Positions 6,901 to 64,000 of a stretch of 64,000 nucleotides of DNA are shown here, piece after piece. The notes beneath the pieces are model-generated. The model was not told the origin of the DNA. It ran no database searches and saw nothing but the letters and a program-made list of their open reading frames with translations. The position numbers and the translations under genes were made by a program. The number at the start of each line of letters is the position of its first letter. Position 1 is the first letter of the stretch. Location of the stretch: assembly GCA_008632985.1 (NCBI GenBank), contig QPGO01000101.1, forward strand, positions 62,001-126,000, written 5' to 3'. This stretch comes from Psammoneis japonica (lineage: Eukaryota).

Positions 6901-8669
6901 CCGCCAGTCACACTGTCTTGTTGGGTCAGCACACTTGGGTGCCGGGGTGTCTTCCTCCTCCTCATTGCCTCTGTTGTCATTTCCCTCTCAAATTTTCTTT
7001 TCTTTCATGGCCTTGTGATCCCAAAGTTTCCAGCAGCTCTCCGGTGTCAACAGCTCCAGAGCCTTGTCATTTGCCACACATGGCTCTGCAGCTTTGGATG
7101 AGGATGCAGAACAGCCAGGGTTCAAGTGGATGTCATTGGCAGGTGTCAGCCACTGTCTGGTCTGTGCATGAGCCCACTGGAAGAAGGAGGTCATTCTCTG
7201 GATCAAAATCTTTGGGGAGATTGTTGCATGTGTTGGAGCGCCATTTGTTGCAAACAACTGTTTCTCTGAGGGTTGCAGTCATCTGTGGGAACAAACTTTT
7301 GGAGCCGTTCCTGCACCAGTTGGTTGACATTGAGACTGTGATGGTCGTCAAAAAGGGAGTGGGCAAGCAAGTCCCCCAACATGTCCAGCATTTGGGAACA
7401 GGCAACTTGGCACCCACAAATGATGTGTGTGTCTGGCTTTGGCACGCACACCCTCTTGCGGAGGCATTTTAGCAACTTTTTGTGCTGAAGAGCCTTGGAC
7501 ACATCGAACTTCTTTTTCTGGAGTGAGCAGTGAACTGCAAAATCCTCCAGTGGTGTCAGAACTGTCACACAGTGTGGCCAGCAGAAGAGAAGCTTCCTCT
7601 GCCAGCGCAAAGCTGCAACCAAGCAGAAGGGATGATGCTTCCTCCTCAGCATCATCAGCGGGTTTTGCTGGCGGATTTTTGGCACCCGCTGTGTTGAAGT
7701 CCGAGTTTGCAAAAGGCAAGTGAACTGAAAATCAACATGGTGTTGTCAATGTGTCCAAGGCTCACTGCTTGTTGTCTCACTCAACTTTCTTGCTGCAGGC
7801 CTGTTCCAGCCCCAGGTGATGAGAAATCCATCACGCAAGAGGCCGATTGTCTGTGCAGCTCAGTGCAATGAACTCCTTCAATTTTGATCTTTTTGAAAAT
7901 CCAAAGGTGAGTGTGTGCCAGAAAACACATGCAAAGTGCACAATCGCCCTTTGATTTGGCAAAAACCCGATTTTGAAGGAGTTTGATGCACCAAATGCAA
8001 AAATGGGCCAGCAATTGGAGTCGAACCTGTGTGCATCACCTGGAGATGGAACAGGCCCGACTCAGCCAATTCTCATTGTCTTTCCCAGCATGAGCACATC
8101 AACAAATCCAACGTCGTCGTCACATCATCTGACCCATTTGAGCAATGGCGTTGACCAGATGATTTTTTTAAAGACTTTGACAAAGGAGCTGCAATGCATT
8201 CAGCCAAGCATTCTTGAGTGGGAGAGAGTCAGGCAGATGTGAGCAAAAATGCACAATGGTGCTGGCACGTGGCTCGAGAAAGAAGCAGCCAAACAATGTC
8301 GACAAAAATTGAAAATGTTCTGATGCTGTCATTCTGTGAAATGACAAATGACAGTGAACAGAGCTTCTCCCTGGCTTGTGTGCACTCTAGATTGATCGCA
8401 AAAACACAAATGTCAAATCTGAAAATTGAAAACTGTGGCTTGTGAATGAGCACTCATGGATTGTTTCATCCACCAATGGCATGAAAGAGGTCAAACACAG
8501 TTGTCACGTGGTCAAAGCCAAATTAGAAAGCAGAGCATGGTGACAAAATTGGTTTGATGATGCCATCATCTGATCTTGGTGTCAAGAGCGGGTCAAGTTC
8601 ACCTCGTTGCACTGCAAGTCACGTGTCTTGAATCCCGTGTGACCCGCTCAACTCAATTTTTTTGGAAGT

Positions 8670-8860
8670 TTTAGCACTCTAGACTTTGACCCCAGCCAGA
8701 GCCACAAAATGCACAAGACATGAGCATTGTTGGTCTCATGCTCTTCAAACCAATGTCTTGCGAGAATGAAGTGGGTGTGCATTGTTTGTGGCATCTGGTG
8801 GTTCAAAACAGAGCTGACTTTTCGTGGAGCACCTTTGTCACATGGGCAAGTGCGAGAGTC
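8670..8860. repeat. Dispersed ~190-bp repeat, copy 1 (copy 2 at ~37390-37580)
   Basis: tagactttgaccccagccagagccacaaaatgcacaagacatgagcattgttgg...aatgtcttgcgagaatgaagtggg aligns with tagactttcaccccggcgagagccacaaaacacgcaagatgtgagcattgtcgg...aatgtcttgcaagaatggagtggg. Ends are approximate. Confidence 0.75.
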
Positions 8861-8959
8861 AATGTTCAGCGATTGGTTGGCCCCAGCAACTGGCGTTCAC
8901 CCCCATTCCAGCAGGCCCCCAAAAGTGTGCTGAACTTTGCGTCTGTGTGCTTTCAGTCA

Positions 8960-9170
8960 ATCAAGGTGGGTTTCCTTGAGTTTCATTTTGTCGAAGGCTC
9001 CCGCAACCCAGCTGACATCCTCAGCAAGCGTTGGGGCTGCTCCCAAGTCTGGAGCCTCCTTCATCCTCCAATGTTTTGGAGCTTTGATCCCAAGGCTTTC
9101 AACCAATCTGACCTTGAATCTGTCGCAGTTGACCCCTCAAGCAAACTGGGGAGTGACAGGATTTGAACAA
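8960..9170 (+). mobile_element. Ty1/Copia remnant: RNase H C-terminus, polypurine tract and probable start of 3' LTR
   Basis: Translates to FHFVEGSRNPADILSKRWGCSQVWSLL, matching the Copia NPADILTK/SK motif with WGY changed to WGC. It is followed by ggggag (9148-9153) and then TG (tgacagg, 9154). Confidence 0.75.
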
Positions 9171-9559
9171 AATTCCAGTTTGTCACACACAATTGTGTGT
9201 GCTCTCAGTTCCACGTGTGTCATGTGACACAGTTTGCTTTCAAGCCACACTGCTCACAAGAACAATGACAGCAGCACCAATGTCATGACACCAGTCTTTT
9301 GGCTCCTGCAACAGTCTCTGCACAGAAACCCATCTGCCATTTAGACAGCAGCAAGGAGTTGTTGTTTTCTTCCACCCAGTCATCTTCATTTTCTGTCATC
9401 TGGTGACAGAAAGTTCCTCCAGTTGGTGATCTGGATGAGGAGGGCAATCCACTCAGACATGGGAGCACATGGCAGGATCATCCAGGGAAGTTTTTTTGGC
9501 AAACTCGCGCCAGTTGTGTGCCAAATTTTCTGCAAGGCAAAAGTCAGCAGCAAAGTGGT

Positions 9560-12120
9560 GCAGAACATGCTCAACACTTGCAGCATTGTTGGTTGCACAA
9601 AGGTGCAGCACATGAGCAAGAACTTCATCAGAGGCAGCTCAACACTTGGATGGGTCACAAATCATTGATGGAGCACATCAGCACATCCAGCCAGGACATG
9701 CCATTGGGGTCTTGTGGCAGAGAGTCAAGAGCCAGGCTCTTCACAACATTGCCAGGGCAAGAGCCACAGCTGGCTGATTTTGCAGAAGAAGAAGAAGAAG
9801 GTTTCACCAGCTCACTGGTTCCCAACAAGGCAGGAATGTTGGAGGTGAGGGTGCGGCGTGCCTCCCTGGACAATGAAACATCACAAGATTCTGCCACGGG
9901 AGGTGCCAGGTGTTCGAAGGAGAGAGGGTCTTGGCCTTCTTGGTGGGGATGGTGCCATCTTCATGCTTCCTTCTGATTTTGTACTTGGTTCTTGACCGGT
10001 GCTTTTGTTCACACAATCATCTTCCAAGCAGTCAACCCGGGATGTGTGCCAGGCTGCTCCTTTTGACAATGCTTCCCAAACTCTTGCTCTCCAACAAGGA
10101 ATTGATTTTTGCTTTGTGCACATCCCAGCAAGCAATGGAGTCACCATCCTTTGTCACCAGGTCCTTCATGTTGTTGAGTTTGTCTCTGAGACAGGCCTTT
10201 GCACAACATCCTCTTTGGACCTGACTTGTCACTTGACTTGCATGTGACAAGAAAGCTGTTGACAAATGTGCTCCACTCCTTCTGCTGGGCAATGACCTTT
10301 TGAAAAATCTTCAAGAACCAACATCTTGTGTGTCACTCTGCTGGCACATCAGATGCACTGCATGACCATTTTGGTGACAAAGCAGGCACCATGAAGGTTG
10401 TGTGGTGCTTGGTCTTCAATCAAAGCAAGCAGACTGTCACACTTTTAAAAATGGAAACAACAAGGCTTGCCTGCAAAAGAGTTGTTGAGGGGTCCTTGCT
10501 GGTGATGATCTGGCGCACGCACTCAACCATTGCCTTGAAGTCATTGCAGCATTGGGGGTCATGACAAGAATGCTGCCTCTCATTCCTGTCTCACCAGGTG
10601 TTTTGCAGAGAAATCTCCAGAGCTTCCTCCATCAAGTTTTGGCAACAAAAGAACAAATTCACCTGTTTCATTTTAACAGGATCTCTTGATTGCCCCCAAA
10701 CCATGAGAGTCATGATGCAGGACCACATCACGTCAGGACTTTCAAGAGACATTTCCTTGCAATGATGTCAGTGCAGAGATGGCTTGTGTGCTGCATGGAA
10801 AACATGACAAAGCTTTGGCTCTCCTGGAGATGGTGTGCTCAAACCACTGCTTCTTGCAGAGGCATGCACCACAGTTGTGTTTTTGAGGTTGGGTTTCAAA
10901 AAACAACTCCTTGCCTGAGAGCCATCTGCAAAACATTCCATGTCATCACAAAATCAACATTTTCATCAGCGAGACAAGAATGAGAAATTGGCCTCATTTT
11001 GTTTTTTGTGGGCAGTGACATTGACCACCAGTTGTCAATTGGGGGAAACCACACAGAGCGCACGTGATTCACAACAAAAGTGCACACAAAATTGCTGTTG
11101 TGCATTTGGGGAGAGGGCGTGCTGTTGTGTGAATCATGCACAAGAGTGCACATGCAAAACAAAATGCTGAAAAGAGTCAGCAGGCCACCTTGCAGACATG
11201 AGAGAAACTGTGAACAGCTCAAAGAAAGAGTGTGCTCTGTGAGTGTGCGCACCATGATGGTGAAATGGATGGGCACAGACAGTGTGGACATCAACTGAGC
11301 CAAGCATTGTCAAACAAGAGCTTGACAAATTCCAAACAAAGCAAACATTTTGCCCGCAATTCAAGAAAGCTGTGTGGAAAAAAGATGAGCACAACACTGT
11401 TTGCACAAAAACACAAAAAAAACACAAGCGCACCAGCACATTTGGTGCCAACACACTGTTGCAGCCACATTGATCATCACACTCCAATGATTGGCACAAC
11501 ATCATCAACGAGTGCACAAAATGATGTTGCAAAGGAAAAAGCAGATAAAACCCTGCAATGATGTGCTGGCACAAAAGCACCATTGGCAGCAACAACAAGA
11601 CCCCTTGCTGTGCACAAGATTCTGGTGAACCAAGAATTTTTCTTGTGGAGAGCACTTGGCAGGTGGGTGTGTGGCCATGGCTCACACACATGGCACAGCA
11701 CTTGTGAGTGTGTTGATCGGCTGCTTTGGGACAGACTGCAGAGACATGCTGTGCACGCGCGCCTCATGTCAAGTGGTCACGATGCAAGACACGTGCCCCA
11801 AATGCGTGCACACATTGATGAATGAATGACCTTTGGTGCTCCTCCACCATCCTTGTTTCACAGCCACACAACACAACAACAGCTTGAGGAGTCATTGCTG
11901 TTGCAGCAACCATGTTGACAATGGAGCAACCTGATGATGATGATCTTGTCAATTGTGATGAGGAAGAGGCGAGCATTTGTTGTTGTGTGGCTGTGCATGT
12001 GCATGGAAACAATGTGACACAACATGTCATGACAACAACAACAATGTGGCATGCTTGCACACACTCTCTGCATGCTTTTCTCTCATGCATTTTCTGCAGA
12101 ACACTGTTGCTGCCATCATG
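9560..12120. repeat. Segmental duplication, copy A (direct copy of ~16450-19110)
   Basis: Colinear similarity over ~2.5 kb. Example: catccagccaggacatgcc.ttggggtcttgtggcagaga at ~9684 and ~16540. Similarity continues through the UAP56 promoter, exon 1 and intron 1. Confidence 0.9.
11912..12120 (+). pseudogene. Truncated, TpA/CpG-eroded copy of UAP56 exon 1, intron 1 and start of exon 2
   Basis: MLTMEQPDDDDLVNCDEEE versus intact [19 protein letters not shown]. Splice donor gtgagta changed to gcgagca. Homology ends near 12120. Confidence 0.9.
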
Positions 12121-13710
12121 ACTGCATTCTTGCGCTTTTGGATCGGCAGGCTGAGCAATCATGTCACAAAAGCTGCTGCAGTCATTCACATGGAACCAGA
12201 TGTGTGCATTGCCATCTCAAGAAAAGAGGGAGTCAGGACCATGATTTGGAACAAAGCCTGCATTCATGAGCTCCGCTGCTTCTTCCAGAGGAATTTGCAC
12301 CCAGCTGCAGCACCTCATCTCCAACTCAAGGCATTCTTTGGTGAGTTGTTTTCAACACGCCTTTGTGGCAGGCTTCTTGTGACCATCTGCATGAAAGCTT
12401 TTCAGCCTGAGAGTGTGCTTGAACCCAAGAAGACACATTCAACGCATCAATGTCAAAATGGAAAGTGCCTTGGCCCAAACTGTTTCAGAAATGAACTTTT
12501 GGCATCTTCCTCATCTTCAGCCAGCAGATTTGCCAATGGGCTCAACAGTTTGCTCAAATTTGTCATCATGTTCCACCACAACATTGCTCTTTGTGCTCAG
12601 CAGCAGTGCACAGGAATCATCTTCCGGTCAAGGAGCTCATTCAGATTGTGCGCCGCGCACCAAACAAGCACACTTTTGACTTCAAGATTGCTGCTAAAAA
12701 AGTTGGGAGTGTGGGTTTGCCTTGTTTGGCATTTTGAGGGAAGCAGTCTCCCACTTGCGCCAAATGCCGCTGCCAGTGCTGTGCAGCAAGTGCAAAATGC
12801 CATCTCCCCTGTCCTCATTGCAGCACGTCCACAGCACTCACCCCAAGTCATGTTGCCCTCAATCCCCCCCCCCCCCTGAGGTTGTCAAGTGCAGCCTGAA
12901 GCACTGCCATGATGCAAAGTGCACAATGCAAAATGGACACCTTTTCACAGTTGGTCTCTTGATTCTTGTTGTCCTGGTCAGGCAATGCTGTCTCACAGCC
13001 ACATGGATGATGGCTGACAACAGCGGGCAAAATGTCAACGTGATCTTGCACAACTGTCTTTGCATCAGTGTCATCTGGGTGAACCAAGGTTGGTGCAAAA
13101 ATGCTGCACACTTGAGGTGAGTCCCAATGGTTGCACTGAGGGCTGAGGCACAATTTGTCGCCCGACAAAATCCAGCTCTTCAACTGACGTGATCCAACCA
13201 TTGTCATTTTTCTTCAGAAAGACAAAGTTTCATCTTGCCTCATTGTGTTTTGTCACCTCAACTTTCTTCAGAAAGACAAAGCTTCTTCTTTGTTCATTGT
13301 GTTTTGTCACCATTGAGCATGTTTGGATCAGTGCCGGAAAATTCGGGCAGCATTTCAGCGCAATCACAAGTGAAGCTCTTCCAAATTTTTTCTCAACGGC
13401 TCACCACTTCACAGCCACACTTCTGCAGACTCATTGCCAGTTGCTGGTGGACAAAGGTGTTGATGTGACTTTCCAATGGTGATGAGAAGAAACATTTGTT
13501 GTGGTCATTTTCTGCCCTTCTCGAGGCCACATGAGCACTCCGTTTTGCACAGATTTGCCCCGCCGCCAGCAACAGTGCTGCTCTCTTTCCCAACATTTGA
13601 AACACCACCAGCATTCTTCTTTAACTCTCCACCCATGATTTGGAGCCCCTCGTTGTTGATGTCAAATTTTGCATTGCAGTGCTCTGCCCACAGATCTGCT
13701 GGCATCCCCG
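12120..13710 (-). mobile_element. Degenerate DNA-transposase N-terminal half (probably IS630/Tc1/mariner-related, DGHE-motif type)
   Basis: Minus strand reads R*MCLLGFKHTLRLKSFHADGHKKPATKAC*KQLTKECLELEMRCCSWVQIPLEEA. Reverting C/H to Y gives an LGFKY..R.K.FY.DGHEKP.T..YR....YL..E.R...W.Q pattern that I recognise from eukaryotic DDE transposases. The catalytic part is absent and no TIR was found. Confidence 0.55.
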
Positions 13711-14227
13711 CTGATTCTAAACTCGAGAATCCAAGAACAGCCGATGCATGTGTTTTGATGCAAATGATTTTCAGACATCAGAAATGATGGGTTTTTGCAC
13801 TTTGGCCCTCAGGGAGCTTCGCAGGTGGGTTGGTCAGGTGGGAGTGGGTCGCAGCGCTGAGAGCCAGGATTGCTCAAGAAGCTGCAAGCATCATCGTCGA
13901 GCGACCAGGCACGCATGTGACAATTCTCATGCTCATTGTTTTCCCCTCCAATGAAATGAACTTCAACTTGGTGACGTGTTGCACCACTTGCGTAGAAATC
14001 TACTCCAAATTTCTATGTAAAAAAGTCAATTCCAGAGAAGAAGCTAAAAAATGCGACAGACGCCGTCTTGTCTTCCGAAAATCGCCCCGCTGTCCAACGG
14101 CCTACCGCCTGCCGTACCGCTTCATCCCTAGAGAGAGTCTCGAGTGCACCGTTTTCATGCAACACCGTGAACACCTTCCATCTTGAATCTTCCTGTAGAC
14201 TAAAACACAGGTCCCTGTATGCCGACT

Positions 14228-14704
14228 ATGAAGTTTGCTTTCTCCCTCATCCTCGCCCCCCTCGCCCTCTCTGGTGGACAGCTCACTTCCGCTGACCCAA
14301 ACCTCCGCCGCAAGGCCAAAAAACACCGCAAGCTTTCAGGCTCTTCCTCTGGGTCTTCGTCTTCCTCTTCGTCTTCCTCCCTCGCCATTTGCAACTCCTG
14401 TCCCTGCTTCACCAAAACTGGTCCCGAGGGATGGGCAAATGCCCTGTCCTCCGTCAGCAGCGGCGATTGCTTGATTTCAAACCCGGGTCCCAATGGTGAT
14501 TCCGATTTTGCCATCCAACTGGGAGATGGGCGCCCTTGTCCATTTACCTTGTACAACAACGACGGCGGCTGTTGTGCATTAATCCCTTTAGACAACGCAA
14601 ATGAAGTTGACATTGATGGATTGGAAGGCCAGAGCTGCAGCGGTTGTCTCCTGGCCATTGCCGACCAGAATTCGTTGAGCGAGTGTCCTCCTCAGCACCA
14701 CTGA
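14228..14704 (+). CDS. Small secreted Cys-rich protein with RXL motif and Ser-rich tract, 158 aa
   Basis: Signal peptide MKFAFSLILAPLALSGG, basic pro-region NLRRKAKKHRKL, SGSSSGSSSSSSSSS, then a domain with 10 Cys. Lies in a TpA-retaining island. Confidence 0.8.
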   Translation: MKFAFSLILAPLALSGGQLTSADPNLRRKAKKHRKLSGSSSGSSSSSSSSSLAICNSCPCFTKTGPEGWANALSSVSSGDCLISNPGPNGDSDFAIQLGDGRPCPFTLYNNDGGCCALIPLDNANEVDIDGLEGQSCSGCLLAIADQNSLSECPPQHH

Positions 14705-14838
14705 TGTCGTTTCTTCGGGCAGAGCACAGGAACACATGTGAAAAGAGACAAAACCCAAAGAAAAATAAAAAGATGAGCCTTTGTGCCGACAAAATCCAGA
14801 AAAAAAAGACTTTGTGTGGATGCATGTCAGTAGATCTG

Positions 14839-15314
14839 ACTTCTACTTTCGATAACTTTACTACTCTAAAGTGCAAGTATTATCAATTTGTAGCCGATTC
14901 TTCAAAATGTCGAAACAGCGAGTCATCGTCTCCCCTGTACCAGCAGTTATTCAAGTTTTCGACTAGTTAACGCAGCACTGTGTCGCTTCTACTCTTTCGC
15001 TAAATTTACTACTCTAAAGTGCAAGTGTTATCAATTTGTAGCCGATTTTCCAAAATGTCAAAACAACAACGAGTCATCAGCTCCCCTCTACCGGGTACTA
15101 GTAGTTGTTCAAGTTTTCGAGTAGTGAACGAAGCGCTATGGTACTTCTACTTTCGATTAATTTGCTGTTCTAAAGTACGAGTATATGAGCAATTTGTAGC
15201 CGATTTTTCAAAATGTCAACCATTAAAATAGCTATATAGTAGTTGTTCAAGTTTTCGAGCAGTCAACGAAGAGCTATGTTACTTCTACTTTCGATAAATT
15301 TACTACTCTCAAGC
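14839..15314. repeat. Tandem repeat, ~140-158-bp unit, 3 full copies plus a partial fourth
   Basis: Units start (a/g)cttctact(ct)ttcg at 14839, 14985, 15143 and 15281. They share caatttgtagccgatt.t..aaaatgtc and ttcaagttttcga. Confidence 0.9.
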
Positions 15315-16222
15315 ATAGCTCCCCACTACTAGCATCTATCGATTCGATTCGAGTCAGTCTTCTTTTTCTCGCCATTGTGAGGTCACCAACTGCGCATCTC
15401 CATGAATCAATGCAGCAGTTGGCTCAAGCATCTGGAACCAATTCTCTCGACGCTGTGATTCGTCATTGTTCTAAACAATGATCTGAAGTCCAGAGCTTGC
15501 ATGAATTGATCACTGTGAAGATGTTCTTAGGGTGTAGACAACACTTGATTGACAAACAGCAACGAACTGTCAGGTAACTCTCGCATAAGCGGACTCACTT
15601 TGACGTCCAGGCGAACCATCCCTTCCACATTGGTGAGCTCCGTTCTCGGGATCAATCTTAAATGTTAGCCTCTCTTCTGTCCTGTTGTAGGTTCGGAATC
15701 TGGGTGCTATTCCACGTATTCGACCGCGCTGTATTCGATGAAACGTCCATTGTTCAACAATCCCAAAGGTCACACACACGCACAATGCCCATTGTAGGTG
15801 AGTGTGTGTGTCGAAGGCTACTCTCTCTAGTAGTAGTAGAGGTCCGTCGTTAGTGCTGCGTGGTTATGGAGCTGCGCAAGACGACACGCGTCGGCGGCAT
15901 TCCTGGATGATTCGTCATGGCGGAAGCAGAAAGCAGAAAGCAGATCATTCTGCGTGGTTTCGAGGCACAACGGTCGAAGGACATGCACAAGATGCGCGTT
16001 CCAAACATCACACACATTTGTGTGAAAAAAGCAAAATGCTCCGTCCTTGTTGTTTTGCGAGCCACAAACACCAGCCACACCACGACTGCCCGCACCTGTG
16101 GGTGCAGCAATGCAAGAGTCTTTGCCATTGTGCAACTTAACCATGTCAATGAAGGAACAACAACCCAACGATGGAGGAAGAGGCAACAAGCAGTGTTGTT
16201 GTTTTGTGTGGATGTGCGTGAA

Positions 16223-16286
16223 AACAACAACAACAACAACAACAGCAACAGCAACAACAACAATGACAACAACAACAACAACAACA
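16223..16286. repeat. (AAC)n microsatellite, imperfect
   Basis: aacaacaacaac... run with a few agc/atg interruptions. Confidence 0.9.
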
Positions 16287-16449
16287 TCTCATCACAGTGC
16301 TGTTCGCTGTGAACTCTCTCACACTCGCTCACACACTCTCCACATGCTGCTGTCTCTGTGTGCAACTCTCGACATTTTGCACAGGATGCTGCAGTCGCCA
16401 CCGCCGTCACTTCTCCCAACAACGCTGCCACCCCCCAAGGGTTGCTCTT

Positions 16450-19110
16450 GCAAAAAGAATGTGCTCAACATTTGCAGCCTTGTCAAAGGCAACTCAACTC
16501 TTGGGTGCTGGGTGTCAAAGCATTGACATGGCATCAACGCATCCAGCCAGGACATGCCGTTGGGGTCTTGTGGCAGAGATCAGAGCCAGGCCCTTCACAA
16601 CATTGCCAGGGCAAGAGCCAGAGCTGGCTGCTTTTGCAGAAGAAGAAGAAGGTTTGGCCAGCTTGCTGATTCCCAACAATGCAGGAATGTTGGAGGTGAG
16701 GGTGCAGCGTGCCTCCCTGGACAATGAAAGCATGCAGATTCTGCCACGGGAGGTGCCAGGTTAGAAGGAAAGAGGGCCTGCCTGGCCTTCTTGGTGGGGA
16801 TGGTGCCATCTTCATGCTTCCTTCTGAATTTGCACTTGGTTCTTGATTGATGCTCTTGTTCACAATCATCTTCCAAGCAGCCAACCCTCTGGTCTCACAC
16901 TCTGCAACAAAGTGTTGTGAGCTGCTTGCTGTGCCCAGGATGTGTGCCGGGCTGCTCCTTTGGACATGCTTCTCAAACTCTTGCTCTTCAACATGGAGTT
17001 GATTTTTGCTTTGTGCACATCCCAATGAGCAATGAAGTCCCATCCTTTGTCACACCAGGTCCTTCACATTGTTGAGTTTGTCTCCAAGACAGGCCTTTGC
17101 AGCAGCACCCTTGTTGGACCTGACTTGTTGTCACTCAACTCGTGTGTGACAAGAAATCTGTCAACAAGTGTGCTCCACTCCTTTCTGCTGGGCAAAATGG
17201 CCTTTAAAAAAATCTTCAAGAACCAACAACTTGTGCATCACTGTGCTTGTGCATCATCAGACGCATTGCAGCATGACCATTTGGAGACAAAGCAGGCACC
17301 ATGAATGTCATGCTGTGCTTGGTCATCAAGAATCAAGGCAAACAACAAGGCACTTGCCTGCAAAGGAGTTGTTGAGGAGGGTCCTTGCTGCCAGCAACAA
17401 TCTGGCACATGCACTCAACCATTGCCTTGATGTGTCATTGCAGTGTTGGAGGTCTTGACAATGCTGCCTCCTGTCTTGCCAGGTGTTTTGCAGAGAAATC
17501 TCTCCAGAGCTTTTTCCAAATTTTGGCAACAAAAAGAACAAGCCCACCTTTTTTTGTGGGCTCTCTCTCTTGATTGCCCCCCCAAAAACCACGAGCAATG
17601 ATGCAGGACCACACAACATGTGTCGAGACTTTCAAGAAAGATTTTCTTGCACCACAGTGTTGTTGTTGTTGTTGGCGCAGGCTGTGAATGACTTGGGCTG
17701 GCTGCACGGAAAAGAGCGCACACATGACAAAAGCTTTGGCTCTCTCTCCTGGAGAGAGGGCATGCTCAAACAACCACACTGCTTCTTGGAGGCACGCACT
17801 GCAACAACTGTGCTTTTTTTGAGAGCAATCAGCACAAAACATTCCATGTGTGTCATCATGACAAAATCAACATTTTTGTCAAAGCGCAACAAGAATGAGA
17901 GAAATCAACCTCGCTGTGTTTTTTTTTTTGAGGGGCAAACACCGTTTTGTGATTGCTGGTGGCTGTCAATTGGGGGGAAACCACTGCACAGAAGAATGCA
18001 TGTGCTGCACAGCAGCACACAATGACGCAATTGATGCTTTGCATTTCTTGGATGTGCTCTGCTGTTTTGTGAAGAATTGCATGGAAAAAGAGTGCCGCAC
18101 ACACGTGCAAAACAAAAATGCTGAAAAAAAAAAAAAGAGTCAGCAGCAGCAGGCCACCAGGCAGTGAGGAGAGAGAAACTGCAAAAAAGGGCATGAAGAA
18201 AATGTGTGTGTGTGTGTGTGTGTGTGTTGTTTTTTTTTTCCATGCTCACCATGATGGTGTGTGGAAATGGGTGCAGACACAGTGTGTCATGGATTCAGAG
18301 TCAAAGCCAAGTTTTTTTCATCTCCCCCCCCCCGAAGCATCATGATGAAACACAATTTGGACAAATTCCAAAAAACAAAGCAAAAACAGTTTGCCCCTGC
18401 AATTAAAAAAAGAAAGCTGTTGAAAAAAAGACAAACAAGAACAAAAAACACACAAGTGTGTGCACATGGTGGGTGCGAACACGCTGTTTTGCAGCAGCTC
18501 ATCATGTGTCGCACACTCCAAAATGATGGGGGCACACAACATCAACAATGAGTTTTGCACAAAAATTGATGTTTCAAAAAAGGAGAGAGAGAAAGCAGAG
18601 ACAAAATTTGCAAGAATGTGCCAGCACGCAATGTCACTGGCAACAACAACAACAACAACATCTAGAGCCCCCCCTTGTTCGCATGATGCATTCAGGACGG
18701 ACGACTGACAGAGACATGTTGCGACGCGTGGCGACGCGCACCTCATGTCGTGCGGTCACAAGATACGCGTTCCAAATATATATATTGATATACAGTTAAA
18801 AATAAATACTCCCCAACCGTCCGCACAGCCGCACAACAACACAACTAACGCAGCTACTGTATCATAGCACGAGGAGGAGTCATTGCTCTTTTGTAGTAAC
18901 CATGTCAACCACGGAACAACCTAACGATGATGATCTTGTCGATTATGACGAGGAAGAGGTGAGTATTTGTTGCTGTATGTGCATGGAAAAGGAGGCAGCA
19001 ACACATGTATCGTTGCAACAACATGGTACTACGTGCTCACATACACTTACACTCTCTACGTACAACTCTGGTACATTTTCTACACAGGACGCCGTCACAG
19101 CCGCCGAAAC
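16450..19110. repeat. Segmental duplication, copy B (direct copy of ~9560-12120)
   Basis: See copy A. The segment 16450-18750 is TpA-depleted, while 18760-19110 retains TpA and belongs to the intact UAP56 gene. Confidence 0.9.
18777..18792 (+). promoter_or_regulatory. TATA-like element upstream of UAP56
   Basis: tatatatattgatata about 110-125 bp upstream of the ATG, at the edge of a TpA-free tract. Confidence 0.45.
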
Positions 19111-20321
19111 CACCACTGCTACTTCTTCGCCCGATGGCAAAAGAAAAAAAGGGTCACTATGTTGGCATTCATGCTTCTGGTTTTAAAGATTTTCTTTGAA
19201 GCCGGAATGTTTACGGGCGGTTGTCGATTGTGGATTTGAACATCCCAGTGAAGTCCAGCATGAATGCATTCCTCAAGCTGTACTCGGCATGGACGTCGTC
19301 TGTCAAGCGAAATCGGGCATGGGCAAAACAGCTGTTTTCGTTTTGGCGACTCTTCATCAACTCAACCTAGAAGCGACAGACGTTCAAGTGTTGGTCTTGT
19401 GTCATACACGTGAATTGGCGTTTCAAATTGCCCATGAATACGAACGTTTTTCGAAATATCTTCCGAGTTGCAAGACGGCTGTCTTTTATGGTGGTGTTCA
19501 CATTCGTACCAATCGTGACATTTTGAAAAACGATACTCCCCACGTGGTTGTCGGCACGCCCGGACGGATTTTGGGACTGTGTCGAGAAAAGTCTCTCAAT
19601 TTGAGCAATTAAACACTTTGTCTTGGATGAGTGTGATAAATTGTTGGAGAGTTTGGATATGCGCCGTGATGTTCAAGAAATCTTCAAGGAAACCCCGCAT
19701 GACAAGCAGTGCATGCTGTTTAGTGCTACTCTTTCCAAAGAGATTCGTCCCGTGTGTCGTAAATTTTGTCAAGATCCCATGGAAATTTATGTCGATGATG
19801 ATACCAAATTGACCTTGCATGGACTTCAGTTGTATTATAGCAAATTGGCCGAATCGGAAAAGAATCGGAAACTCAATGATTTGCTCGATATGCTGGAATT
19901 CAATCAAGTGGTCATTTTTGTCTCCAAAGTGGCCCGTGCCAAGGAACTGAATCGGTTGCTCGTGGAATGCAACTTTCCGTCCATTTGCATTCATGCTGGA
20001 CTTAGTCAGAAGGAACGCATTGCCAAGTACAAGTCCTTCAAGGATTTTCAAGCACGCATCTTGGTTTCTACCGACTTGTTTGGACGCGGCATTGACATTG
20101 AACGCGTCAATGTTGTGATTAATTATGACTTTCCGGATGACAGTGATCAATTCTTGCACCGTGTCGGACGTGCGGGACGATTTGGAACCAAGGGAATTGC
20201 CATTTCCTTTGTCTCGTCAACACAAGATGAAGAAATTTTGGGAAAAGTGCAATCGAGGTTTGAAGTCAATATTCCCGAATTGCCCGATGAAATTGATGTG
20301 TCGAGTTATATGAGTACGTAA
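18902..20321 (+). CDS. UAP56: DECD-box RNA helicase UAP56/SUB2/DDX39; exon 1 18902-18958, intron 18959-19087, exon 2 19088-20321 (three homopolymer indels in the assembly)
   Basis: Diagnostic peptides [71 protein letters not shown] and [13 protein letters not shown]. Intron gtgagt...acacag. Frame breaks near 19140, 19195 and 19608. Confidence 0.95.
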
Positions 20322-21599
20322 TATTGAGAATTGGATATGGCGGCGTTGGAACTATGGATGGAATGAGTCGAGTTGTTGTTTTTGGTGGTGCTAGTGTATA
20401 TGCGACGTTGGAGGAGAATAGTGGTGTGTGAAGAGAGCCGGGAATTGGATATGGTGCTTGGAAAAGGGGTGAAGAGAGCCGGGAATTGGATTGGAAAACG
20501 ACAGTGAGGTGGTGCATGGGGAAAAAGAGACTGTAGTAGTATTGTGTGTATTATTTGTGCATGGGAAAAGAAAGAAAAAAGGTTTTACACTTGAGAGAGA
20601 AAGTATAGAACAATGGTTGCAAGTGTATGTATGGTTTTCGTCTCTGGTAGAGAGTTATTATTGTGGAGAGTAGCAAATTGAAAATAACGACAGTTGTTGG
20701 AGGAATGAGTGGCGAGTTTTGCGCATGTCCCTGGTTGCGCTTTTGTGCAACAGTGCACGATTTTTGGGTCACAGTCATTTTGCGGTCATTCTCATTCCGC
20801 AACAAGGCGACTTTCATGAACAGCAATGTGTGCATTTTGCTGGTTGTCCTGTGGAAGCCACCTCTCGTTGTTCGACAACACTGTGAAACTTCCAGAGATG
20901 CAATTGTCAAAGCAGGCTTGCACTGGTTGGGTGTGGTTGGGTGTGTGGTCAGGTGTCAAATGACCAGCTGGCTCTGTCAACAGACGGCACAACAAAAACG
21001 GTCTCAAGCAGCCAGGGTGTGCAAACCAGGGGCACAATGACAGTTCCCAGGGACTTGGGTGCATCATTGGAAAAAGACAAAAGAGTGGACAAAACTGGAG
21101 AACATGCGGCATGTTGAGGGAAAGAATCTGCAATCCAGCGGCAGCGACAGCAGCAGCGTGCATGTTTGTGTGTGGGAAGTTTTGCACTCTCAAGGAAATG
21201 AACAAAGCTGGCATGGTGTTTTGCTTTAAGCGTGTGAATTTCAGAACATTTCTGTGGAGCAGCAGCTTTTTTCTCTGTGCAGCATCATTGCTGTGCACTG
21301 CTTTGTTGCTCACACTTTTTTCTCTCTGTTGTTTTTTTTTGTGGCAATCAACGGCATCACCCTCAACAGCTGAAAGAAGTGATGAGCAGAGCATGCCAAA
21401 TTTGTGCTCTCACACAAGCTGGGAACTGCACTGAGCATTTGGCTGTCCAACGCACCTGGATTGCGGGGCTTGCTTTCTTGTTTTGTCTCTCTTTTGCTCC
21501 TCAGCTGGCACACACATTTGTGACTGAGACAAGCTCCACGACTCTGCCGTTGACCAAGAGTCAATGTGGAGATGACTGGCTCAGAAGAGCAAGTTCAAA

Positions 21600-30596: not shown

Positions 30597-33006
30597 ATGG
30601 CTTTTGTTCTCCATGATGCAAAGGATCTTGTGTGGCAAGACACCTTTGCCAAGCCGTCGCCGCAAAGGAAAAAAAAAAGCAGGGACAACTGAAGACAATG
30701 ATGGTCCACCCGAATGGTCGACATTGCAACAGCTTTTGAAAAAAAAACTCAATTACAGCAAGAATGATGACAGAAAAAAGCTCGTGTCAATGATTCGTCC
30801 TGAGGACGCCACTCACATTCCATAGATTCACATCGAATCTGGTGTCATCATGGACTGGAAAATCGCTCCATGTCGGATCTTACCGGAAAACCAAGGTGTC
30901 AAGTTGCAGGTCGTACATTGGATGATTTGCTGAGGGACATGATTCCTGCCATTTCCGAGGAATGCCGAAACGCGGCTGTCGACTGGGTCACGTCACCACC
31001 GCTCGTCCCTCCTGACTGCGTGTTTGAAACTGCTTTGGACCTCCAAGAAGACTGCCTGTTTCCCCTGCCATTGCCACTCCGAGTAGACCCGTGCGACGAC
31101 TGCTGCGCCAGCAGTGAGCATTGCTTTTTTGTGGAACTCCTCGTGACACGAGCCGATTTGTGTTCAAGATTGGGTTGCAAGATCAAGCCCAGTTTTTACT
31201 TGCCGGAACGAAATCAGGAAACCAATGGTTGGTTTGGTGGCTTGGAATGCACCCTCCGCCGTGTCGGAGTTCCATCACTGCAAAGTCTGTGCAAGGCAAT
31301 TCTGGACCACGATTGTTTCCACCCAGACGACAGTTTGTCAGTCAACGACGAAGAGCCCGGATCTGGTCCAAACGCGGCAGAGCAGCCGAAACAAAAGCGC
31401 TGGCATCAAGTTGTTGAACAAGATTTGCTACAACGCATGTCAAGTCGAATTCGATTACGTCAGCCGGTTGTTCTCCAGTGCGTGAAAGAAGTGCTCTATC
31501 ATGTCCGAGTCGCCATTCGTAGATTGGCAGTCAGCAAAAAGATTTGTTGGTTTACACAAGATTGGACCAACAACCCCGAGACGGCTGAACTGAACAGTTG
31601 GATTGTGACTGCTCTGGGTGGACAAGAGATTCTGGAGCAAAATGTCAAGGGCGGCAAACTGACATGGAAGCTAGCGTTTTCGGTGGGAGGCTCTCGAGAG
31701 CAAAAGATGTCTGGAGAGATGAAGCGACACGTGTTTGACGAAAGATGGCACCATTTTATGATGGATGTGTCTTGTTTTGTTGGAGAGTGTGCGCCTTCCA
31801 TTTGCCACGCTTCGGATTCGCCATGTGCCCATGTCGGAGGATCTTGCGCGGACAATGCTGACGCTGAAAATTGAAGGGGTGGAGCGTTGCGACGGGTCAT
31901 TTCAAGAGGAGCCGTACAAATCGTGGGCCGTTGTACGCGTGCCGGCGAACCTCAGTTTCTTTCAGTTGCACCGAGTTGTCACACAGACCATGAACAGCAA
32001 TGGCAGTGGTGTTCGAGCGACTCATGTCTGGAAATGCAAGAATTTTGCCAGCCGGTTTGAGACGCACTCTGTCGAACGCAAATTTCATTGCGTGCAATTG
32101 GGTGAAACGCACTTCACAGAAGACGGCCGCAGGGAAGATTGTGGATGTGACAGAGACGATTTGTTTCCTGGCGGAAATGCGTTGCGACAGCGAGTGTCAC
32201 GGACAGCTGCGCATTGCCACCAAGAAGTGCCGCTCTATTTCTCAGATTTTTCAAGTCTCTTGCCACAAGGAGAAAACGATTCTGTCAACAAAATCCGTGC
32301 GTGCATCCATTCAACATGCATCAATGCTGCTTTCTTTCATCCGGGGACAGAGGCGTGCCTCGAAGACGGCCTTGCTGCATGTTGTACAAAATGCAAGATT
32401 TCTTGCATGCGCATTGACCATCATGATGGTCCGCTCCCAAAGAAGCCTCACATCAATTCATTTCTTCCCAAGTGCTTGCGCGGGAAATCTGCTGACGACG
32501 GGGATGATTGGACAGTCGAAAACGCCAATGTGCAGCTCAGGCTTGATCGTGGGTGCCTGCGAAGGATTCCATGTAGAGTTGGCTCCAAAGACTGCATGCA
32601 GCAGATGCCGTGGTGTTGGACAGATGCTTTCTGGGGATTCCAAAGCGACGAGCATTTACGCAAGCCACTGGCAACAATGCTTGTCGGCTTGGACTCGAGC
32701 CCGATTTTTCTACACGGAGAGCCACCGCTGCCCCAATCCTCCCGGGGCAGCTGTGAAGCATGTGTCTCATTGTTGGATGGCAGGATTGATCCACATTTTC
32801 TTCAAGAGAATGTGGTTGATGACTTTGGGAATTTCTCTGTCCCTTTTCGTTGTGGTCAGAGATGCAGTTGGGATGGCGGTTTCAGCGATGGAGTTGTTGA
32901 TCCAGAGTTTGACGGTGCAGTGTGGGAGCGTGAGGTTGATGAGGAGATGCAGCAACGTGAAGATGCAAAGCAAGAAGCAAAACCCAAGTCTGGAGGGGCA
33001 AAGTGA
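30597..33006 (+). pseudogene. Decayed paralog of the 806-aa gene at 42227-44647
   Basis: Colinear over its full length. It has frameshifts (~30660-30700, ~30860, ~31825), an in-frame TAG at ~30823 and systematic Tyr to Cys/His replacement. Confidence 0.92.
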
Positions 33007-34396
33007 AAGGATCGAAATTGAGATGCCCTCATCAATGTCACACTGGAGTAAAATCATTTTAGAGGCTTTTGGATTCGCCATGTCGCAGTGTTTTCTTCTC
33101 AGTGTTGGCGTGTTCCAAAAGTGAAAGTAGATTGGAAAACAGGGGGGATCGGATTTAATTGTTAGATTCATTTGCAAGGCAACCGCACTGATTCTCTTGT
33201 TAACCCATGCCTGGACCTGCCACACTTTTCAGGTGAAAAGAGTCGGTCAAGCCACCATTGTGCACACCCGTGACTGCACGCAGCCTGAATTTCGAATGAT
33301 TGCTTTCCACCACAGCATGCAACCGCCCCATTTTTGCCAAATGCCCACATCAGTCAACTGACAGTGCACTGGTGTGAAGTCACACACACACACCTTTGGG
33401 GGCCCAGCTAGAATGGAGGTGAGTGTCAGTTGCTTGTCAATCACTGGAGTTTGGATCTCACTCTTGCCCATGTGACAGAGATTCATTTTCAAATGTCTGA
33501 CACCATGGAGAGGGGCACCTGTCAATTTTTTCAGGTGTGAGGGCGCTGTTTTGAAGAGCAGCACACTGACAATGCCAACCTCCCTGGCAATTCTGGCTCT
33601 GACAGGGGGGTCAAAGTTTGGCCAAAACTTGCAAAAAATGAGGAGTCAAGTGTGGGTCACACAGGATTTGCTGCTCTGGTGACTTGGGGCAGCATGATGA
33701 AGGGAGATTGGCTCTTTCTCAGTGCCAAGACCTGCCTTGCTGTGTGTTCTTTCCCCAGTCACCTGTTTTGCCAACATTGTGCTGTGCTTTTGCTGCAGCA
33801 GAAGGTCAGGGAGAATCTGACATGCACGTGTGATGCTGACTTTGCAGTTTTTGAGTGCTGCTGTTTTTCTTTTTCTTGTGTCTGCACCTGATGATCAGCT
33901 TGAGCTTCTGGAGAAGAGGGGTGGAGCGACGCATCTTGCAGCCCTGTTGCAAAGCAAAAGCACTGCACAACTTCAGATTTGTTGACTTTGCTGTGAAGAA
34001 AATGCATCACCAAGGAGGAGGGGGGGCTCTGCAGATCTGGATGTCAAAAGTCTTGTTCAAGGAAACTTCTGTTGCCCCAGCTCTCCAGCAGCAGCAGCCT
34101 GGCAGCTGGCTGCAAGCCCCCACCCACAGCCATGAGCACTGTGGTGCCAACCTGACAACCCTTGGAGGTTTGCAATCTGCAAGCAGCACCTGCTTGCAAC
34201 AAGCTTGCAGCAGCAGCCTCACCACACCTGAAAAAGCTGCTAAAGCCACTGTCCAGGTGGAGGCTGAAAAGAAACACAAAGTGCAACAAGTGCACATGCA
34301 ACCTTGTTTCAAAGTGAGCATGGGGCTTGCACTTGTGTGTTGATGCTGTGTGGCAGCTTGTTGGATTTGGCTCAAGCAGAGGCAGCTGGTCACACT

Positions 34397-42026: not shown

Positions 42027-42226
42027 GTCCAAGCACAACAAGCTTCCCCGGAAAAGTGACTTTCCGGGTCTCGTGAGTTCCCTGATTTCGTGCGTGGAGT
42101 CGCCACGGTAAATCAGAAATCAGCGAAAGCCCATCACATTTCAGGCGCAACACAACTGCATCTCTTGCCATCGTGCTCGATAGATTGCCTCATAAAACAG
42201 TCTAGTTTTCCAACACCCACCATAAG

Positions 42227-44647
42227 ATGTCTCTCGCTGACTTTAGTGGCTCAAAGAATCTTTTATGGGAAGACCTTTGCACATCCGCTGCCGCCCTGAT
42301 GCTTCGCCGCGGCATTATCCAACCAGGGACGATGACGGATGATGGGCCACCCGAAACATGGACATCCAAACAGCTTGGCAAAATGATGAGATTGGACAGG
42401 AACAATGACAGAAAAGAGCTCTTGTTGATACTTCGTCCCGAGGATGCAACTCACATTCCTCAGATTCGTATCGATTCTGCTGGTGTTGTTGTGGACTGGA
42501 ATCGTTCCATGACGGATCTTACCGGAATACCGAGGTGTCGTGTTGTAGGCCGCACATTGAATGACTTGCTGCAGGACATGATTCCTGCAATATCCGAGGA
42601 ATATCGAAATGCAGCTATCAACTGGTGCTCGTCTCCACCGCTCCGTCCTCAGTTTGGCTATGATGCAGAAGATCTCAGAGAAGATTGTCTCTTCCCTCTG
42701 CCTCTGCCGCTGAAAAGAGATGACTCTGTCAGCAGCGATTATTGCTTTTTTGTGGAACTCCTAGTGACACGAGCCGATTTTTATTCAGACTTAGGTTATA
42801 CGTTTAAGCCTTGTCGTGACCTGCCAGAAAGTAATCAGGAAACTTCTGGTTGGTTTGGTGGCGTGGAGTATACCCTCCGCCGTGTAGGCGTACCCTCCTT
42901 ACACTCGCTGTGCAAGTCAATTCTTGACCAAGATTGTTTCAACCCAGATGGTAGTTTGTCAGCCAATGACGGATCGTCGTCTCAAGGTGAAAACGTAGCT
43001 TTGGAGCTGCCAAATTGGCGGTATCCAATTGAAAAAGAATTGCTGCAAGGCATTTCAAGTCTCATTCGATTGCGCCAGCCGGTCGTTCTCAAGTACATGA
43101 GAGAAGTAATCTATCATGTACGATTTGCCACACGCAGATTGTCAGTCAGCAAGAAGATTTATTGGTTTACACAAGATTGGGCCCAAAATGCCGAAACTGC
43201 ACAATTGAACAAGCTTGTTGTAAAGGCTCTGGGTGGAGACGAGATTGTCGAGCAAAATGTCAAGGGCGGCAAATTAACTTGGAAGCTAGCATTCTCGGTA
43301 GGTGGCTCTGATCAAAAGCAAAAGAAAGCTGGAGAGTCGAAGCGGGACGTTTTTCAAACGCACTGGGACCATTTTGTCCAGGCTATATCCCCTGTTATTG
43401 GGGAGTGTACGCCTCCCATTTGCCAAGCTTCAGATACGCCGTGTATGCTGCCCATGTCGGAGGATCTTGATCGGACAATGCTTACGCTCAAAATTGAAGG
43501 GGTGGAGCGTTGCGACGGATCATTTCAAGAGGAGCTTTACAAATCGTGGGCCGTTGTACGAGTGCCGGCGAACCTTAATTTCTTTCAATTGCACCGAGTT
43601 GTCATACAGACAATGAATTGCAATGGCCGTGGTGTTCGAGCGACTCATGTCTGGAAATTCAAGAATTTTGCCAGCCAATTTGAGACATACTCTGTCCACC
43701 GCAAATTCCATTACGTTCAATTGGGTGAAACTTACTTCACACAAGATGGCCGCAGGGAAGATTATGGATGTGACAGAGACGATTTGTTTCCTAGCGGAAA
43801 TGCGTTGCGACAGCGATTGTCGCGCACAGCTGCGTATTACGACCAAGAAGTGCCGCTCTATTTCTCGGACTATGCAAGTCTCTTTTCACGAGGAGAAAAC
43901 GATTCTGTCAATAAAATCCGTGCGTGTATCCATTCAACATGCATCCATGCTGCATTCTTTCAACCGGGGACAGAGGCGCACCTCGAAGATGGCCTTGGTA
44001 AATATTGTACAAAATACAAGATTTCTTGCATGCGCATTGACCATTATGATGGCCCGCTTCCAAAGAACCCTCATATCAATTCATTTCTTCCCAAGTGCTT
44101 GCGCGGGAAATCTGCTGACGACGGGGATGATTGGACAGTCGAAAACGCCAATTTGCAGCTTAGGCTTGATCGTGGCTGTCTACGAAGGATTCTATGTAGA
44201 GTCGGCTCCGAAGACTGCATGCAGCAGATACCGTGGTGCTGGACAGATACTTTCTGGGGATTCTTCCAGAGCGACGAGTACTTACGAAAGCCACTAGCAA
44301 CTACGCTTGTCGGCTTGGACTCGAGCCCGATTTTTTTACACGGAGAACCACCGCTGCCCCAATCCTCCCAGGGCAGCTATGAAGCATATGTCTCATCGTT
44401 GGATGGTAGGATTGATCCACATTTTCTTCAAGAGAATGTAGTTGATGACTTTGGGAATTTCTCTGTCCCTTTTCGTTATGGTCAGAGATCCAGTTGGGAC
44501 AGCCGTTTAAGCGACGAAGTTGTTGATCCAGAGTATGACGGTGCAGTGTGGGAGCGTGAGGTTGATGAGGGGATGCAGCAACGTGAAGACACAAAGCAAA
44601 AACCAAAACCCAAGTCTGGAGGGACAAAGCGAAAGGATCAAAGTTGA
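42227..44647 (+). CDS. 806-aa protein with an N-terminal PAS-like domain and a central pRiA4b-ORF3/MM3350-like domain
   Basis: Intact single-exon ORF with normal TpA/Tyr content. PAS-like IPQIRIDSAGVVVDWNRSMTDLTG..RVVGRTL. pRiA4b-like LTLKI...WAVVRVPANLNFFQLHRVVIQTM...HVWKF and PKCLRG. Domain calls are by eye. Confidence 0.85.
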   Translation: MSLADFSGSKNLLWEDLCTSAAALMLRRGIIQPGTMTDDGPPETWTSKQLGKMMRLDRNNDRKELLLILRPEDATHIPQIRIDSAGVVVDWNRSMTDLTGIPRCRVVGRTLNDLLQDMIPAISEEYRNAAINWCSSPPLRPQFGYDAEDLREDCLFPLPLPLKRDDSVSSDYCFFVELLVTRADFYSDLGYTFKPCRDLPESNQETSGWFGGVEYTLRRVGVPSLHSLCKSILDQDCFNPDGSLSANDGSSSQGENVALELPNWRYPIEKELLQGISSLIRLRQPVVLKYMREVIYHVRFATRRLSVSKKIYWFTQDWAQNAETAQLNKLVVKALGGDEIVEQNVKGGKLTWKLAFSVGGSDQKQKKAGESKRDVFQTHWDHFVQAISPVIGECTPPICQASDTPCMLPMSEDLDRTMLTLKIEGVERCDGSFQEELYKSWAVVRVPANLNFFQLHRVVIQTMNCNGRGVRATHVWKFKNFASQFETYSVHRKFHYVQLGETYFTQDGRREDYGCDRDDLFPSGNALRQRLSRTAAYYDQEVPLYFSDYASLFSRGENDSVNKIRACIHSTCIHAAFFQPGTEAHLEDGLGKYCTKYKISCMRIDHYDGPLPKNPHINSFLPKCLRGKSADDGDDWTVENANLQLRLDRGCLRRILCRVGSEDCMQQIPWCWTDTFWGFFQSDEYLRKPLATTLVGLDSSPIFLHGEPPLPQSSQGSYEAYVSSLDGRIDPHFLQENVVDDFGNFSVPFRYGQRSSWDSRLSDEVVDPEYDGAVWEREVDEGMQQREDTKQKPKPKSGGTKRKDQS

Positions 44648-63970: not shown

Positions 63971-64000
63971 GCATCTTTGTTTCCCCATGGAACACTCACC

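Follow-up and report, generated by a model that had tools for sequence, protein, structure and literature searches.

A dead 5' duplicate of the UAP56 gene in the diatom Psammoneis japonica, probably rewritten in place by two transition processes

Mutators that act on DNA by design are few: repeat-induced point mutation (RIP), the APOBEC/AID deaminases, and diversity-generating retroelements. RIP, which operates in Neurospora and other ascomycetes, turns CpA into TpA and hits both copies when sequence is duplicated. Here we describe a locus of the diatom Psammoneis japonica where TpA (written TA below where sites are counted) has been destroyed. The locus lies in a stretch of 64,000 nucleotides (the window; NCBI GenBank assembly GCA_008632985.1, contig QPGO01000101.1, positions 62,001 to 126,000 of the forward strand), in which a dead copy of the 5' part of the gene UAP56 is found upstream of the intact gene.

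A TpA-directed mutator has been described in the chlorarachniophyte Bigelowiella natans. According to a preprint (Mettrop et al., 10.64898/2026.01.13.699255), of the 231 new mutations that mutation-accumulation lines acquired in two integrated viral regions, 230 were A>G or T>C, all of them at TpA, and the hit regions, which consist of integrated giant-virus and virophage DNA, adjoin normally mutating DNA. The same text reports that TpA-poor, CpA- and TpG-rich clusters of the B. natans genome are enriched for transposon-type domains, and an ADAT2-like adenine deaminase was proposed by its authors. A full-text search of the literature on TpA hypermutation, with subscription journals outside its reach, found only this preprint and nothing for diatoms, so that a mutator of chromosomal DNA acting on adenine or thymine has a single preprint behind it so far.

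Compared with the account of B. natans, the P. japonica locus is alike in its A>G/T>C transitions, in their restriction to TpA, in the use of both strands, and in the confinement to regions beside unaffected DNA. Unlike in B. natans, a member of the Rhizaria in which new mutations were recorded in culture lines, we are dealing with a historical footprint in a stramenopile. The hit regions of B. natans keep TpA at 3.3% of dinucleotides, whereas erasure is complete over about half of the window; the targets there are viral or foreign, whereas here a host-gene fragment was hit once it lay inside such a tract; and CpG decay is superimposed here, unlike in B. natans.

The stretch is probably a dead, DNA-level duplicate of the 5' part of UAP56 that has been rewritten in place by two transition processes, the TpA-directed one being aimed at the tract. 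The duplication covers 2.5 kb (9628-12140 against 16483-19130) in direct orientation, with the two sites 6.9 kb apart. Beyond 2.2 kb of flank, it takes in the promoter and the first exon and intron, and it runs about 50 bases into exon 2. Self-blastn matched 9628-11247 with 16483-18220 (72% over 1833) and 11886-11989 with 18874-18979; local alignment placed the left ends at 9628 and 16483 and bridged the two matches through 11324-11598 and 18360-18652. To the right of 12140 and 19130, local alignment scored 28, compared with 22-25 for shuffled sequences, and gave no further homology; tblastn with diatom UAP56 revealed no other gene remnant in or near the copy. The presence of the promoter and the intron means that the copy arose from DNA, or in any case not from spliced RNA.

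The intact sequence (18720-19130) and the copy (11740-12140) were aligned with MAFFT. An earlier note on this DNA, made from its letters, had quoted six strings of the intact gene with their counterparts in the copy and had claimed that every TA was gone. All six pairs are present where it had placed them and lie opposite each other in the alignment, and TA indeed falls from 30 to 0, while CG falls from 27 to 8 and TG+CA rises from 68 to 113. The 30 parental TAs face TG (11), CA (10), gaps (4), or other letters (5), and the last five all stand in columns with a local identity of 0.31 to 0.5. Where local identity is at least 0.6, 10/10 TAs have changed (TG 5, CA 5), and a slightly stricter column filter gives 9/9 (TG 5, CA 4). 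The accompanying statement that CpG had also decayed to TG/CA proved correct as well, since the 27 parental CGs now read TG (10), CA (9), or other letters or gaps (5), with 3 kept.

Tabulating the substitutions by dinucleotide context demonstrates that TA is more prone to transition than other A/T sites. Transitions affected 4/9 T and 4/8 A in TpA, compared with 4/34 T and 6/38 A elsewhere (8/17 vs 10/72, Fisher's test, p = 0.005), and they affected 7/13 C and 3/12 G in CpG, compared with 3/22 other C and 0/29 other G (10/25 vs 3/51, p = 0.0005). CpG decay is a second, separate component in this pair and does not account for the loss of TA. Two details of the earlier note stood in part. The splice donor is destroyed as described (GT>GC), but this T>C change falls at TpG and not at TpA; of the two changes, only the one at the TA four bases on is a TpA change (GAGTAT>GAGCAT). 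The (TA)n run in the promoter is now without TA, but "TATA element" is only a putative label for it. This run, at 18774-18786 in the parent, corresponds to TGCGTGCACACA at 11800-11816 in the copy, where the appearance of new CpGs from TA steps needs both bases of one TA to have changed, or a shifted alignment of the repeat.

The direction of change was fixed by outgroups. The copy's exon 1 reads ...DDDLVNCDEEE, in which Cys (TGT) replaces the Tyr of DYDEEE, and the argument that TA is ancestral on account of the conservation of DYDEEE is borne out by homologues: the motif L[LIVM][DN]x[DE] occurs in 76/120 UAP56 homologues, with x being Tyr in 76/76 (the other 44, without the motif, mostly have truncated or mispredicted N-termini), and the acidic motif occurs in 55/80 related metagenome loci, with Tyr in 55/55. 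Since Tyr is conserved across the outgroups, both TAT>TGT (TA>TG) and GAT>AAT (CG>CA) are derived in the copy.

A second pair in the window, a gene with PAS domains and its frame-broken copy, is 83% identical and offers more scorable sites. Among the 73 parental TAs (out of 81) that could be scored, 28 face TG, 20 face CA, 11 are kept, and 14 face other letters. When A>G changes are sorted by the 5' neighbour, they amount to 50/145 at TpA, 18/334 at ApA, 14/299 at GpA, and 30/318 at CpA (TpA excess, Fisher's p = 1.3e-18), whereas CpG transitions are not raised above those at other C/G sites (19/222 vs 44/777, p = 0.12). Both strands were used: the TG:CA outcome is 28:20 here and 5:5 in the UAP56 pair, and the order of TG and CA along the PAS copy is random (25 runs, compared with 24.3 +/- 3.3 in shuffles). 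The surviving TAs of this copy are scattered singly along its 2.3 kb and do not form blocks. Its 27 parental Tyr codons now encode Cys (14), His (6), Phe (3), Tyr (3), and Gln (1), and among 17 diatom homologues Tyr is the majority residue at 13 of the 20 sites of Tyr>Cys/His change, with Cys or His never found in more than 2. Of 178 scored amino-acid differences, 87 have the outgroups on the side of the parent, 47 on that of the copy, and 44 on neither side; the PAS parent has also changed, only not at TA. The PAS pair shows loss of TA that runs ahead of and apart from CpG decay and is strictly TpA-bound, both-stranded, and derived. Its copy is a younger stage of the same process, with TA down from 81 to 20 and CG not lost (118 vs 130). 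The named relatives of this second gene of the window belong to Skeletonema, Cyclotella, and Mediolabrus. The PAS copy is located directly after an open reading frame (ORF) similar to endonuclease-reverse transcriptase (29112-30272).

At the parent locus, the borders of erasure are sharp. Around UAP56, the first TA of the island lies at 18764, 138 bases 5' of the ATG (18902), and the last at 20685, 364 bases past the stop codon; 23 TAs fall within those 364 bases (20322-20685). TAs within the island are spaced 2 to 90 bases apart, compared with 5 TAs in the whole of 15866-18763 and 5 in 20686-24065, and a dense run of CG begins at about 18680. Contigs of public run X2 cover 14151-15913 and 18852-20564, matching the TA islands 13993-15865 and 18764-20685; they do not cover the dead copy or the TA-free tracts, a blank that is not evidence of silence. 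This run is recorded as 'DNA?' yet holds a spliced UAP56 contig, and no listed public run is RNA. The spacer between two genes at 44920-45534 keeps 47 TA per kb, and since spacers between neighbouring genes keep their TAs, TA loss is not a general property of non-coding DNA.

The co-duplicated flank indicates what the process follows. In 1281 well-aligned dinucleotide columns of the flank, TG faces CA 25 times, which makes this the commonest double difference (the next class counts 3); CG faces CG 3 times, and CG faces TG or CA 17 times. The TG/CA discordance fits one ancestral TA or CG resolved separately in each copy, and part of the erasure of the flank therefore took place after the duplication, at both sites. 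Since the flank was erased at both sites and the gene part only in the copy, the aim would follow the chromosomal tract rather than the duplication of sequence. Three PAN/apple-domain ORFs (45235-46866, 50276-51742, and 56507-57904, minus strand) are paralogous, with 72-86% DNA identity and normal TA. Repeated within 13 kb and still TA-normal, they argue that repetition alone does not attract TA erasure. As erasure continued in the shared flank after the duplication, the locus bears on how the process is aimed (at the tract, not at repetition), which the Bigelowiella study left open.

Table 1. Coordinates in the window of the dead copy, its parent gene, the shared flank, and the PAS-domain pair
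Feature	Position	Strand	Evidence
Copy, homologue of UAP56 promoter and 5' leader; 0 TA; the parental (TA)n run reads TGCGTGCACACA	11740..11911	+	MAFFT alignment, TA/CG fates, TA map
Copy, homologue of exon 1 (ATG...GAG); Tyr TAT>TGT, adjoining Asp GAT>AAT via CG>CA	11912..11968	+	Alignment, outgroups
Copy, homologue of intron 1; donor GT now GC, acceptor CAG kept, 0 TA	11969..12099	+	Alignment
Copy, exon 2 homologue (its first ~40-50 bases); CG>TG/CA changes; homology stops at the right end	12100..12140	+	Alignment
Flank co-duplicated with the gene start; TA-free, CG-poor	9628..11739	+	Self-blastn, local alignment
Counterpart of this flank beside the parent, reaching the border of the gene island; TA-free (4 TAs in the stretch), CG-poor	16483..18700	+	Self-blastn, TA list
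Island of retained TA around UAP56	18764..20685	+	TA and CG position lists
UAP56 exon 1	18902..18958	+	Translation; spliced contig
UAP56 intron 1, 129 bases, GT..AG, 11 TAs	18959..19087	+	Run X2 contig skips 18956 to 19086 (cut +2); TA list
UAP56 exon 2, DEAD and Helicase_C domains; indel errors near 19136, 19194, 19600-19604	19088..20321	+	Pfam; tblastn with diatom UAP56
TA-poor, frame-broken copy of the PAS-domain gene; 20 TA, 130 CG	30698..33044	+	Self-blastn, site counts
Intact 813-aa PAS-domain ORF, parent of the copy	42206..44644	+	Pfam; 81 TA, 118 CG in 42339-44670

According to the preferred explanation, a copy of the 2.5-kb segment would have been placed 6.9 kb upstream, in what is today a TA-free tract. 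There, a first process, a TpA-directed A:T>G:C change on both strands, would have turned TA into TG or CA until it was completed in the copy, and a second, slower process would be ordinary CpG decay to TG/CA, as expected for methylated cytosine. The first process appears to be aimed at the chromosomal tract and not at duplicated sequence as such; at the parent, erasure halts about 140 bases 5' of the start codon and sets in again about 360 bases past the stop codon. The comparisons above demonstrate the polarity, the TpA specificity, the involvement of both strands, the sharpness of the borders, and the independence from CpG decay. The chemistry may be enzymatic adenine deamination in DNA (A>I, read as G), by analogy with the route proposed for B. 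natans, and silent chromatin may set the aim.

Several points weigh against this explanation. Identity in the UAP56 pair is only 245/383 (64%), which leaves about a third of the TAs without a confident score (9/30 unscorable, 4 gapped and 5 in poor columns), and the well-aligned sample is small, at 10 TA sites. Transitions of A/T outside TpA are not negligible in this pair (10/72) and include the loss of the splice donor. The polarity in the promoter and intron is extrapolated from two coding sites and the PAS-domain pair, as the outgroup covers the coding part only, and by a rough and weak estimate about half of the 25 TG/CA discordances in the flank could derive from an ancestral CG and not from TA. 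The tract around the copy has no recognisable transposon domain, its ORFs (4760-13117) having given no Pfam hit; calling these surroundings a transposon tract relies on the state of the DNA and on raised contig depth at 9891-10281 and 13410-14191, where the depth is summed over public-run contigs and is no copy number. Lastly, we infer the enzyme, the chemistry, and the chromatin basis from a historical footprint left in sequence.

Among the alternatives, the same process with the same aim could use another chemistry, either a modified thymine at TpA (of the 5-hydroxymethyluracil type) mispairing with G, or a methylated adenine that is deaminated. TA is self-complementary, and T>C on one strand cannot be told by sequence from A>G on the other; TG and CA arise about equally often, and some protists preferentially modify the thymine in TpA. 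On the other side stands the sole experimental report, which favours an ADAT2-like adenine deaminase on grounds of homology alone (10.64898/2026.01.13.699255). We regard such a chemistry as unlikely.

It is somewhat less likely still that a TpA mutator acts everywhere, a possibility that would also count against tract aim: selection on the essential UAP56 would keep the parental TAs, and the borders would mark the limits of constraint. UAP56 is highly conserved (89% identity to other diatoms over 238 residues), Tyr>Cys/His changes there would be harmful, and were mutation to arrive in dense bursts, neutral TAs linked to the coding ones would survive with them. However, the parent keeps the 11 TAs of a 129-base intron, the 23 past the stop codon, and those of the 138 bases 5' of the ATG, which makes site-by-site selection unlikely. 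The survivors in the PAS copy are single and scattered, and the hits in B. natans are scattered as well (2 to 45 per line over 186 kb); with such a scattered pattern, hits confined to the intron or to untranslated regions should have accumulated if selection alone were at work. Intergenic DNA between adjacent genes also retains its TAs. Selection alone is thus a weaker account than an aim at the tract.

The errors that polymerase eta makes at WA motifs are mostly T>C/A>G, as described in the literature on antibody hypermutation, and error-prone repair of this type, recruited by frequent T:G mismatches in methylated DNA, would make A:T changes. TA loss and CpG decay do coincide in the old tracts, but ApA in the PAS pair is at background (18/334, compared with 14/299 for GpA and 50/145 for TpA), and the same pair has advanced TA loss without CpG decay, which renders this route very improbable.

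The TA-free sequence could also be an artefact, if a long-read assembly suffers systematic base-calling or polishing errors at modified TA/CG sites. Indel errors do occur in the window, where three apparent frameshifts in UAP56 are corrected in read contigs; however, a 2484-base contig of run X1 spans 10395-12876 and agrees with the TA-free sequence apart from the differences given below, and the Tyr>Cys change of the UAP56 copy and the broken frames of the PAS copy are coherent with real mutation. Run X1 may come from the assembly's own sample, in which case it is independent of the assembly only and not of the sample. Taken together, an artefact is barely credible. The X1 contig differs from the window at 22 positions, of which 12 set CpG against TpG/CpA, in both directions; one single change (12638) would make a TA, but with the adjacent change at 12639 it turns CA into TG and no TA results. 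CpG decay in this tract looks recent or ongoing, and the two versions of 10395-12876 may be haplotypes.

It is scarcely conceivable that ADAR-type UpA editing of double-stranded RNA, followed by reverse transcription, carried the gene start into the genome. ADAR does favour a U directly 5' of the A that it edits (work cited in 10.64898/2026.01.13.699255), and an upstream element could in principle carry flanking DNA along. However, the copy holds the promoter and an unspliced intron, TG and CA are interleaved without the strand runs of one cDNA, which would carry one strand's changes, and the parental flank, although it stayed in place throughout, was also erased, partly independently.

With tract-aimed TpA erasure as the favoured reading, the locus can be set beside the better-known systems. 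By function, RIP comes nearest among the classical systems, yet it works in the opposite direction. As in RIP, context-specific transitions kill duplicated or mobile DNA, spare neighbouring genes, and can spill into adjacent sequence. Unlike in RIP, TpA is destroyed and not gained, with outgroups placing TA as ancestral and TG/CA as derived, and within the gene part only one member of the pair is affected, the parent keeping 30 TAs and the copy 0. The duplicated gene part, at about 400 bases, may be near the length limit of RIP. RID-related DNMT4 genes of unknown function occur in many diatoms, according to a paper on diatom DNA methyltransferases.

The second component resembles methyl-CpG decay in diatom transposons. 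Diatom transposable elements carry CpG methylation, according to PMC9998398, and in our case 19/27 CGs of the parent have become TG/CA in the copy, and the window and the read contigs differ mainly at CpG (12/22). Methyl-CpG decay, however, cannot remove TA, and the PAS pair combines far advanced loss of TA with CpG loss no higher than background. The deaminase-type transitions with a preferred neighbouring base are reminiscent of ADAR, which acts on double-stranded RNA, and of APOBEC3, which acts on viral DNA, both discussed in the B. natans preprint; unlike for these enzymes, the substrate here is chromosomal DNA in place, on both strands, with heritable results.

Tentatively, and with doubt still outweighing confidence to a small degree, we propose that diatoms possess a heritable defence by DNA editing, in which every TpA of whole silent tracts is rewritten, with its aim set by tract and not by homology. 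Any DNA landing in such tracts, even part of an essential host gene, would be erased, and a transcribed gene a few kilobases off that shares the flank would be shielded, with the limits of the shield about 100 bases from its promoter and 3' end; taken with Bigelowiella, the system would be an old defence of the SAR supergroup, unrelated in mechanism to RIP. The locus is a clean natural experiment, with the same 400 bases in two contexts 7 kb apart and a direction fixed by outgroups, and the particular value of the UAP56 instance lies in having a host gene for which both an outgroup and the contrast of parent and copy are available. In this genome, TA-free tracts could serve as markers of silenced DNA, Tyr>Cys/His changes as markers of dead coding sequence, and the loss of TA first and of CpG later as a means of dating insertions relative to one another. 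Should an enzyme lie behind the process, nature would have supplied an A-to-G editor for double-stranded DNA with specificity for TpA.

The parent gene encodes a protein with DEAD (Pfam, 3.9e-25) and Helicase_C (3.2e-28) domains that is 86-89% identical to diatom proteins named UAP56/SUB2 (Discostella, Fistulifera, and Phaeodactylum). Its frame is apparently broken at three places in the window, and contigs of both public runs, which derive from one sample, carry frame-restoring indels at 19136 (+2 or -1, depending on the run), 19194/19195 (+1), and 19600 and 19604 (+1 each). A 1195-base contig of run X2 joins 18956 to 19086, with the 129-base GT..AG intron 1 removed. As the contig indels restore the frame and intron 1 is spliced out, UAP56 is whole and spliced as predicted, and the window sequence carries indel errors. 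Small indel errors were noted inside the gene at 19136, 19194-19195, 19600-19604, and 20217-20224, some of them beside short single-base runs, and ORF-based gene calls on this assembly will be broken in places.

Over the whole window, TA stands at 0.24 and CG at 0.59 of expectation, and CA and TG at 1.55. TA numbers 5 or fewer in 29 of 64 1-kb bins and 6 to 83 in the rest; bins that bear genes hold 25 to 83, and bins of 0-5 TA per kb adjoin bins of 25-83. A sliding count puts 49% of the window at no more than 8 TAs per kb. The TA-poor tracts include 4760-13990, 15866-18763, 20686-24065, 52000-56000, and 60700-64000. In 80 metagenome loci of UAP56 relatives (386 kb, 649 1-kb windows), no TA-free, TG/CA-rich tract was found; only 2 of the 649 had a TA observed/expected ratio below 0.15, both in a contig of 73% G+C without TG/CA excess, and such metagenome contigs, being short and gene-dense, are hardly informative on the process outside this diatom.

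Surviving TAs in TA-poor surroundings are mostly of the form YTAR (42/67, compared with 137/826 in normal DNA, p = 1.5e-15). In the PAS pair, YTAR sites have changed in 7/8 cases, and YTAR looks at most a slower target, not an immune one. A 5'-TAY target was sought by direction of change, and neither a 3' pyrimidine (24/33 for TA>TG vs 16/25 for TA>CA, p = 0.57) nor a 5' purine (17/25 for TA>CA vs 16/33 for TA>TG, p = 0.18) differed significantly.

At the edge of a TA island (13957-14536), one read contig with 15 differences and 8 gaps has CA, TG, or CG against TA of the window, with such disagreements at 14115-14116, 14129, 14218, and 14228. Given the high summed depth at 13410-14191, this contig may represent a paralogous copy of a repeat rather than an allele.

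Finally, domains of transposon type (DUF7869, endonuclease-reverse transcriptase, and DDE_3) are present in TA-poor DNA at 27-37 kb, whereas the UAP56 copy itself is host DNA. The ORFs similar to DDE_3 transposase (36133-37230) and DUF7869 (27234-28259) lie in TA-poor DNA with a CG observed/expected ratio of 0.55-0.76, and they are dead DNA transposons at an intermediate stage.

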